DNA from: Holosporales bacterium
GTDB taxonomy: Bacteria; Pseudomonadota; Alphaproteobacteria; BNTO01
DNA: 42,550 nt
Direction of reading: 5' to 3'
Assembly (NCBI GenBank): GCA_031273545.1
Contig: JAISRQ010000078.1
Location: 1-42,550, forward strand
The position numbers and the translations under genes are program-made. The notes under the pieces are model-generated. The model was not told the DNA's origin and ran no database searches. It saw nothing but the letters and a program-made list of their open reading frames with translations. Positions within the stretch are counted from its first letter, which is position 1; each line of letters opens with the position of its first letter. Shown piece by piece: positions 35,321 through 36,975 of this stretch.

Positions 35321-36975
35321 AAAGGTTGTTTGGAACAGATGGAATTCGAGGGCAGGCTAATGCGTGGCCAATGACGCCGGATGTAATCGTGCAAGTTGGG
35401 CGCGCCGTCGCAATTTATTTTCAAAAAAACAGCGCTTCTTCCCGGAAAAGAAAGTCTATATATACCGGGGTTTCTAATGAATGCGGACAAGAAACTGAAA
35501 AATCACGGGAGTTTGCTCTTACTAAAAGTCCGCAATTATTTTGTGAGGGGGTAGATGAGGTGCGCCCTTTACCTCATAAGCATTTTAACCCGTATGTAGA
35601 TCATGCGAATCATCAATTTACGGTAGTCATCGGGAAAGATACGCGGCTGTCTGGCTATATGATTGAGTCGGCGCTTGTTTCGGGGTTGGTGTCGGAGGGC
35701 GCGAACGTAATCATGCTGGGCCCTGTGCCGACGCCTGCGATTGCAATGTTAGCGAGGTCCTTGCGCGCGGATGTGGGCATCATGATTTCCGCATCTCATA
35801 ACCCGTATTTTGACAACGGAATAAAGTTTTTTGACGAGGACGGCGTAAAATTTTCTTCGGAGGTGGAGGAAGAAATAGAAGGATTGATTGAAAGATTGAT
35901 GGAGAACAGGGCTGAATCTCCGAGCACAGGGGAATACGGTGCAGGAAATGGATGTGAATATGACGCGGGAAATGGGGCAGCGAAAGGGGGGAGGCAAAAG
36001 TCCGATTCGTCAGCAAACGCAACAAAGGAATGCGGAAAGTCCATACGGTTGGACGATGCGGCGGGGCGCTATGTTGAGTTTGCAAAATCTACATTTCCAA
36101 AGAAATACGACTTAAGTGAAGTAAAAGTTGTATTAGATTGCGCCAACGGAGCTGCGTATAAAGTTGCGCCGCGTATCTTTTGGGAGCTTGGGGCGACGGT
36201 AATTCCGCTTGGGGACGCGCCAAACGGACGCAATATAAACGACCATTGCGGAGCGCTTTACCCTAAGCCAATGCAGGAATGCTTAAGTGCCGTTGGCGCG
36301 GATGTGGGGATTGCGTTGGACGGGGATGCGGATCGGCTGCTGCTTACGACAAAGATAGGCCAGATTATTAATGGGGATCAAATTTTGGCGTTGATTGCCA
36401 AAAATTGGGCCGGTTTTTCGCAAAATGTCGAGGGGCTCCGCCGATTAACGAATGGAGTTGTATCGACATGCATGTCAAATATTGGATTAAAAAAGTATTT
36501 AAAAAGCTTAAACATTGAACACTTTGAAGCAAAAGTTGGCGATAAAAATGTTGTGGATCTTATGCGGAAAACTCAAAGCAATTTAGGCGGCGAAGAATCT
36601 GGGCACATAATACTGAGCGATTACACGACTACTGGAGATGGAATAATTGCGGCGTTGCAGGTGCTTGGCATTGCGAGAGAACAAGGAGTGGGTCTGGATG
36701 ATCTGTTCCCGCTGTATGTCCCGTGTCCTCAAGTTACTAAAAATTTCGCAATAAATGCATCTATTACGGGTTCGTTTATCAAAGATTTGCAAGATGAAAT
36801 TATGCAACAGGTTCAAGGGGATGGTTGCGTTGTCATCAGGAAATCTGGGACGGAACCACTTTTAAGAGTGATGATTCAGGACGAGGATATGCAAAATATT
36901 GAGCGCATTTTTGATGAGATAGTTATGCCAAAGGTAAATGAAAAACTGTCTGCATGCAAAATCCCCATAAGTTGA
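35317..36975 (+). CDS. glmM: Phosphoglucosamine mutase with two insertions (552 aa where about 445-450 aa is usual).
   Basis: 'FGTDGIRG', '[10 protein letters not shown]', the phosphoserine loop 'SASHNP', 'LDGDADR', 'GGEESGH', '[12 protein letters not shown]'. ATGA overlap with the ftsH stop. Confidence 0.9.
   Translation: [552 protein letters not shown]
35457..35555 (+). repeat. Family B palindromic element, copy B5, in frame inside glmM.
   Basis: TATATATACCGGGGTTTCTAATGAATGCGGACAAGAAACTGAAAAATCACGGGAGTTTGCTCTTACTAAAAGTCCGCAATTATTTTGTGAGGGGGTAG. It is translated as '[33 protein letters not shown]'. Confidence 0.75.

Follow-up and report, generated by a model that had tools for sequence, protein, structure and literature searches.

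A 90-nt palindromic repeat in the glmM reading frame of a Holosporales-like bacterium, probably tolerated as a surface loop

The best-known cases of selfish palindromic repeats colonizing essential genes in frame come from Rickettsia. The Rickettsia palindromic elements (RPEs) are described (PMC1779305, PMC10969869) as 100-150-bp palindromic repeats of intergenic and coding DNA, often found in frame in unrelated housekeeping genes and compatible with protein folds. The original work is that of Ogata et al. (2000, 2002), cited via the same papers, and a related family has been reported in Wolbachia. [quoted passage not shown] Here we analyze a 42,550-nt stretch of DNA from a Holosporales bacterium (contig JAISRQ010000078.1, positions 1 to 42,550 of the forward strand; hereafter the window), in which glmM, the gene for phosphoglucosamine mutase, contains a copy of a dispersed palindromic repeat. 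We consider it probable that this repeat inserted in frame and now persists as a functionless passenger, tolerated by a GlmM that is probably still working.

We propose the following sequence of events. A non-autonomous palindromic repeat of 90 nt, MITE- or RPE-like, would have inserted into glmM at a point corresponding to the alpha1-beta2 loop of domain 1, a loop that is enlarged and length-variable across the clade. The inserted copy, 30 codons long and free of stop codons, would be translated as part of a contiguous 552-aa GlmM. The enzyme with its Y49-G78 loop would remain a working phosphoglucosamine mutase, little affected by the insert.

The likeness to RPEs is considerable. In both cases dispersed palindromic repeats of about 100 nt occur in intergenic and protein-coding DNA of an obligately host-associated alphaproteobacterium, have proliferated in a lineage-specific manner, lie in frame in housekeeping genes in a way compatible with the fold, and encode no transposase. 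The parallel with selfish DNA in Rickettsia protein-coding genes, drawn when the insert was first noticed from sequence (the original prediction), therefore holds, as the copy is in frame in a conserved gene and the segment is absent from orthologues. The differences are that the host here is Holosporales-like rather than a member of the Rickettsiales, that the unit is 90 nt, and that just one of the 10 copies in the window is internal to a gene, where the frame used is one that stop codons close in every other copy; RPE copies, by contrast, are described as encoding a conserved peptide. The peptides encoded by the copies studied here are 27-45% identical over 31 residues.

Features are also shared with MITEs and other small repeats (BRE of Bordetella, RUP and BOX of pneumococcus, ERIC and Nezha; PMC3184786, PMC10969869), including imperfect terminal inverted repeats, a long hairpin, multiple noncoding copies, and the location of copies at the 3' ends of genes, as C-terminal ORF extensions (here in an rsmB-like gene) or inside coding sequence. 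Unlike MITEs, the copies show no evident target-site duplication, and the window yielded no parent insertion sequence or transposase whose ends match, so in the strict sense the element is a candidate MITE only. We suggest that the element works like an RPE or MITE insertion; the assignment is by behavior, not as a member of the RPE families. A third comparison is with the low-complexity and tandem-repeat protein insertions of host-restricted bacteria, which resemble a second insertion in the same GlmM, four segments of the MurD encoded nearby and a tandem insertion in the GlmM of the closest relative (all described below). The insert considered here differs from these in being homologous to a dispersed DNA repeat, which points to an origin by transposition or recombination of a mobile unit and not by local slippage.

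The repeat unit and its copy in glmM

A repeat search combined with an nhmmer profile identified 10 full copies and a few fragments of the palindromic repeat in the window. Two intergenic copies, at 15889-15978 (+; 15889-15983 by nhmmer) and 24325-24414 (-; 24320-24414 by nhmmer), form a young pair; the two are alike at all but one position over exactly 90 nt, beyond which their flanks are unrelated. The mobile unit is thus 90 nt, or 30 codons, and runs TATACCGGGG...TTTGGGGAGTGG. In the register of this pair, with the copy at 15889 as reference, a length of exactly 90 nt is shared by seven of the 10 copies, the glmM copy included. Pairwise identity among copies is 51-72%, the young pair excepted (94% over the aligned core). 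The best explanation is that the family has recently been active in this Holosporales-like genome.

Leave-one-out nhmmer and the boundaries of the young pair place the glmM copy at 35461-35550 on the + strand (TATACC...GAGGGG; nhmmer bounds 35461-35555), where it reads in frame as Y49-G78, a segment of 30 residues. Its membership of the family is not circular, because the profile built from the nine other copies still detects it (35457-35553, E=4.7e-17, 56 bits). The original prediction correctly recognized a family copy at 35457-35555 encoding a 33-residue peptide. It also took the copy to be about 99 nt long and to preserve the frame; the frame is indeed preserved, but by the young pair the unit is 90 nt.

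As the unit is 30 codons long, its insertion cannot shift the frame, and only stop codons matter. Read in the frame used in glmM, each of the nine other copies contains one to three stop codons, and the glmM copy alone is open. Three stop positions recur, and at all three of them non-stop variants occur elsewhere in the family (ATCACAAG, CCGCAAT or CCACAAT, GAAGGAT and similar), making a stop-free source copy plausible. The open frame looks like the result of a survivorship filter, in that only a stop-free copy could persist in a needed gene. GC content at third codon positions is 0.25 in the element and 0.46 in the remainder of glmM, consistent with a foreign, non-coding origin of the element codons. 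The copy is 33-47% diverged from all others, and its top identity (67%) is reached with the copies at 38370 and 15889 alike.

In the family as a whole, CCCCAAAGATTGCGG near the left end of the unit pairs with CCGTAATCATTTGGGG near the right end, and these arms provide the terminal inverted repeats that characterize MITEs. The arms used in the pairing test were specified by hand, since the long hairpin did not emerge when RNAalifold was applied to all 10 copies. Standard pairs were found in 78% of sequence-by-pair cells, versus 29-51% when one arm was slid by one to three columns. No covariation beyond that of column shuffles was detected in the arms of the 10 copies. Pairing above the slid control in the absence of covariation indicates that the symmetry is an inherited inverted repeat and no sign of selection for structure in individual copies. 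Against shuffled sequence, folding is significantly better for the best-preserved copies (z=-2.7 and -2.4). In the glmM copy, the left arm TTCTAATGAATGCGGAC (35472-35488, +; alignment A3 columns 16-33) and the right arm GTCCGCAATTATTTTGTG (35528-35545, +; columns 73-90) pair at 13 of 17 positions, 11 of them Watson-Crick, and the single-copy fold pairs GCGGAC with GUCCGC.

GlmM and its enlarged loop

The ORF at 35317-36975 (+) was annotated from the ORF list, Pfam, PDB and Foldseek. Its 552-aa product is GlmM, a member of the alpha-D-phosphohexomutase superfamily with the four-domain architecture. All four Pfam domains, PGM_PMM_I to IV, are present, and the top PDB match is the GlmM of B. anthracis (3PDK, E=1e-87), with further matches to the enzymes of S. 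aureus, B. subtilis and Francisella. The Pfam and PDB alignments are both interrupted at the same place, such that residues 2-35 and 102-198 align and 36-101 are unmatched; the domain I match is split in two, and its better piece joins residues 96-196 to profile positions 36-136. A second break occurs at residues 199-248, opposite 17 residues in 3PDK.

Across 82 GlmMs (alignment A1), every invariant position is retained in the protein encoded here, on both sides of the insert. This confirms and extends the original observation that the ORF stays open with its downstream catalytic motifs intact. N-terminal of the insert, the invariant residues are F5, G6, T7, D8, G9, R11, G12, N15 and F35 (the FGTDGIRG..N motif and F35). 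Downstream, invariant columns are occupied in the phosphoserine loop SASHNP (S160, H161 and N162), the metal-binding loop DGDADR (D335, D337, D339 and R340), the sugar-binding loop GEESGH (E426, S428, G429 and H430) and the phosphate-binding loop RKSGTEP, of the form RxSGTEP (R508 and S510-E513).

Between the end of '...AIYF' (F35) and F101, just ahead of strand beta2, lie exactly 65 residues (Q36-Q100), the number counted originally; 3PDK has 8. How much of this is element can be estimated from relatives. The closest GlmMs among 5.8 billion proteins come from Holosporales metagenome-assembled genomes and are 57-64% identical by BLAST (at most 68% in alignment A1). At the alpha1-beta2 site, ordinary alphaproteobacterial GlmMs have about 5-7 residues and Holosporales-type GlmMs about 25-45. 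The original comparison with 5-10 residues in E. coli-type enzymes overstated the size of the insert, as Holosporales-type proteins already carry about 25-30 extra residues.

In Holosporales-type proteins a conserved segment, '(Y/H)K.FNPYV...H.(F)TVV', closes the loop, and it is also present in the GlmM encoded here. All Holosporales-type GlmMs have this FNPYV segment, and ordinary alphaproteobacterial GlmMs lack it. The corresponding residues, H87-Q100 (14 residues; 35575-35616, +), lie outside the nhmmer match. They are a clade feature and not element-derived, because they are conserved in Holosporales-type genomes whose sampled DNA yielded no family copy. The distance from F35 to the FNPYV segment is 11-26 residues in Holosporales-type relatives versus 51 here, and the excess fits a single 30-codon unit together with the usual variation of the loop. 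In alignment A1, the residues specific to this genome number only about 35-40 out of 65, roughly half. The core of the element occurs in no GlmM relative in that alignment. The original prediction named conservation of the extra segment in relatives without the repeat as evidence against insertion; such conservation was found for the distal part (FNPYV) and not for the core. We also considered whether the repeat family was derived from glmM, an idea that we reject since GlmM relatives lack the segment.

An AlphaFold2 model built from the 82-sequence alignment has a normal four-domain fold, with a mean predicted local distance difference test score (pLDDT) of 86.5 and a predicted TM-score of 0.86. 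Foldseek matches it to GlmM crystal structures, with a target-normalized TM-score of 0.88 to 3PDK. Confidence falls below a pLDDT of 50 only at residues 48-78, where the element is Y49-G78, and at residues 210-224. The insert follows helix 21-49 (alpha1) and precedes strand 102-107 (beta2) in domain 1. Its position in the alpha1-beta2 loop, with the core confidently modeled, fits the fold in this model, which is of a monomer and does not show surface exposure in the dimer. By topology, a location at the N-terminal end of beta2 would put the insert at the sheet edge opposite the catalytic loops. Most likely the element is carried as a surface loop, disordered and about 30 residues long, and the predicted intact fold with disorder at 48-78 agrees with the tolerated domain 1 surface loop that had been proposed. 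The clade-specific addition at the same site, of about 25-30 aa with the FNPYV end (alignment A1 columns 57-125), has a pLDDT of only 60-69.

The closest relative (L001; JGI contig Ga0466715_354100) also has an expanded alpha1-beta2 loop. It contains an unrelated insertion of about 60 aa, partly a fivefold 15-nt tandem repeat that encodes VSEGR-like units. A different insertion at the same loop indicates that the site tolerates insertions. Translation of the upstream DNA places the true N-terminus of this protein (LFGTDGIRG...) upstream and in frame, behind a non-ATG start; the public glmM call begins at an internal ATG (9900-10200 region). The GlmMs of two other relatives (P0006 and P0024) have low-complexity insertions elsewhere in the protein (alignment A1).

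A second insertion in the GlmM encoded here, missed by the original prediction, comprises T204-A235 (32 aa; 35926-36021, +), between domains I and II. Only this sequence in alignment A1 has it, and the low-confidence residues 210-224 fall within it. It holds an imperfect 8-aa duplication, GEYGAGNG / CEYDAGNG. There is no match of this insertion to the repeat family by nhmmer, no similar DNA elsewhere in the window and no tandem array by Tandem Repeats Finder (TRF). The flanks of the Y49-G78 element are likewise not repeated elsewhere in the window and contain no tandem array by TRF.

Evidence against the insertion and other explanations

Several observations weigh against a mobile repeat inserted into a gene that is still needed. 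For the glmM copy, hairpin stability does not exceed that of shuffled sequence (z=-0.05), and its source had to be one of the uncommon variants that already lacked stop codons. No consistent direct repeat that could represent a target-site duplication was found in the flanks of all 10 copies or of the young pair. Pfam scans of 18 of the larger ORFs in the window revealed no transposase domain. There is no empty-site allele, the nearest GlmM being just 57-64% identical, so the insertion is deduced from distant relatives. GlmM dimerizes through domain 1 (PMC8573169), the domain that carries the enlarged loop. Finally, the analysis covered a single contig, and a second intact glmM may exist elsewhere in the genome. 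Translation through the insert, retained activity and essentiality of the enzyme in this organism are putative.

Among other explanations, the least improbable is that the element loop and the FNPYV segment are now functional, in partner binding or regulation, and are kept by selection. We regard this exaptation as unlikely. It would account for a copy that alone in its family is open in the frame used and that is old, judging by its divergence from every other copy, and for a loop that is persistently enlarged across the clade and adjoins a conserved FNPYV motif. In addition, GlmM binds partners in other bacteria, for example CdaA/DacA (PMC8573169, PMC6368335). However, the loop is predicted to be disordered and its sequence is found in no relative, the closest of which has an unrelated insertion at the same site. 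An open frame, moreover, is needed merely for survival in a needed gene and is hence not evidence of function.

Less probable still is that the N-terminal 36 residues and the insert lie outside the working protein, either because the gene is a decaying pseudogene or because translation restarts downstream, with GTG 35560 (V82) as the candidate codon. The right end of the element offers a Shine-Dalgarno-like GAGGGGG about 8 nt upstream of this in-frame GTG, and this genome has many odd insertions in essential genes. Yet the frame of 552 aa is fully open with all catalytic loops present, and the nine invariant N-terminal residues, including those of the FGTDGIRG motif, are kept in frame. Residues 1-35 match the sequence P0002 at about 24 of 35 positions (by eye), much as the remainder of the protein does, whereas the insert is about 35% diverged. 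The ATG of glmM overlaps the stop codon of ftsH as ATGA. The same 4-nt coordinate overlap of ftsH and glmM is found in the relatives L002 and L003, and the ftsH-glmM order is also kept in L001; together these support the upstream start. No promoter-like site was found on the + strand in 34900-36200, and initiation at V82 would yield a product missing both strand beta1 and helix alpha1 of domain 1 and leave the good conservation of the first 35 residues without an explanation.

Very improbable, finally, is a repeat-induced misjoin or chimeric contig. The window does look like a metagenome-derived contig of a repeat-rich genome. Yet no other copy is more than 67% identical to the one in glmM, too great a difference for short-read assemblers to collapse or swap them; on either side of the copy glmM runs on in one frame; and stop codons have been removed by substitutions found in this copy alone.

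The repeat family in its genomic setting and what it implies

The remaining copies of the 90-nt family were located by nhmmer. Intergenic copies abut the 3' end of a major facilitator superfamily transporter gene (2569-2663, -) and lie downstream of trkA (14868-14961, -), upstream of a prohead protease gene (25798-25892, +) and upstream of murD (38370-38461, -). Another copy (26657-26751, +) separates the prohead protease gene from the capsid gene. It is open in the frame of the latter, whose start is probably the ATG downstream of the repeat (MDEIITDIEK...). In the region 26029-27881, a gene for a caudovirus prohead serine protease precedes one for an HK97-type major capsid protein, a pair that suggests a gene transfer agent-like or prophage remnant.

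Two tandem copies (33097-33276, +; individually 33097-33190 and 33184-33276) overlap at a common TATACC at the end of an rsmB-like ORF (31844-33214). They supply the last ~38 residues of this ORF (MPRALKIAEKKIENSKCFTGQNDRNHLGGIPEGKKCGP) and its stop codon. The repeat-encoded tail starts directly after the conserved ...DGFFI end of the domain, which is that of a 16S rRNA methyltransferase of the RsmB/F-like type. A half-copy consisting of the left arm and loop (29674-29726, +; nhmmer E=6e-7) lies antisense in an ORF of 395 aa (29269-30456, -) and may be another intragenic remnant. A degenerate copy is situated just downstream of that ORF, at 29168-29238. The same ORF was considered as a parent transposase beside the fragments at 29168-29726 and was rejected, as it has no Pfam match. 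Within genes, the window has one internal copy, that of glmM, a C-terminal fusion in the rsmB-like ORF and possibly a half-copy in 29269-30456.

The window contains other peptidoglycan genes, encoding a penicillin-binding protein transpeptidase, MurD and FtsW. The MurD (38548-40467) is 639 aa long, versus about 440-460 aa in solved structures. Its extra segments are N-terminal (1-53) and internal (149-181, 223-298 and 513-597), one of them being of low complexity and Cys/His/acidic in composition (SCSCGCEDHHGCCQNGKCCGDHDGYDEEEGYDGDYEEEEDDDFDE). The murD gene itself contains no copy of the repeat family. A second dispersed repeat family, longer than the 90-nt family and unrelated to it, occurs in both orientations at 2403-2567, 9207-9338 and 25367-25531 (about 130-165 nt, 71-81% identity). 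A tandem array with a 21-nt period (18874-19273) lies inside a 486-aa ORF (18845-20305, -). Seven Sel1 repeats of 108 nt were found in a 357-aa protein (30700-31773, +), and the window encodes several Sel1-like proteins. Multiple proteins of this type are typical of host-associated bacteria.

We looked for the 90-nt family outside the window in several collections. Rfam has no match in the window. A degenerate pattern that matches five of the 10 window copies retrieved nothing from 185,579 species-representative genomes or from JGI metagenome contigs, and a distant BLAST search against plasmids gave no match to the repeat. By nhmmer, no family copy is present in 46 kb around glmM from four related contigs. 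In a 2025 review of Holosporales the words 'palindromic' and 'repeat elements' do not occur, which is absence of evidence only. As far as the collections searched show, the family appears to be specific to this lineage.

What is new here is an RPE-like in-frame insertion in a new lineage; the phenomenon itself was first described in Rickettsia, and our understanding of GlmM and of repeat biology is unchanged by the finding. For annotation, it is relevant that gene callers mis-start genes of this kind, as in L001. The alpha1-beta2 loop of GlmM domain 1 emerges as a natural permissive site, with independent insertions in two related genomes, and it could be useful for engineering tags. A clean Holosporales-like example would show convergent recurrence in host-restricted alphaproteobacteria, with a repeat family that may be unrelated to RPEs and whose unit is exactly 30 codons. 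We put forward only tentatively the idea that this genome holds a second, independent genome-wide system of protein-coding palindromes, with the 90-nt family, which by its length keeps the frame, in many housekeeping genes. If this is true, the repeat would keep supplying essential proteins with new surface loops and C-terminal tails, in an intracellular lineage whose host dependence arose separately from that of the Rickettsiales.

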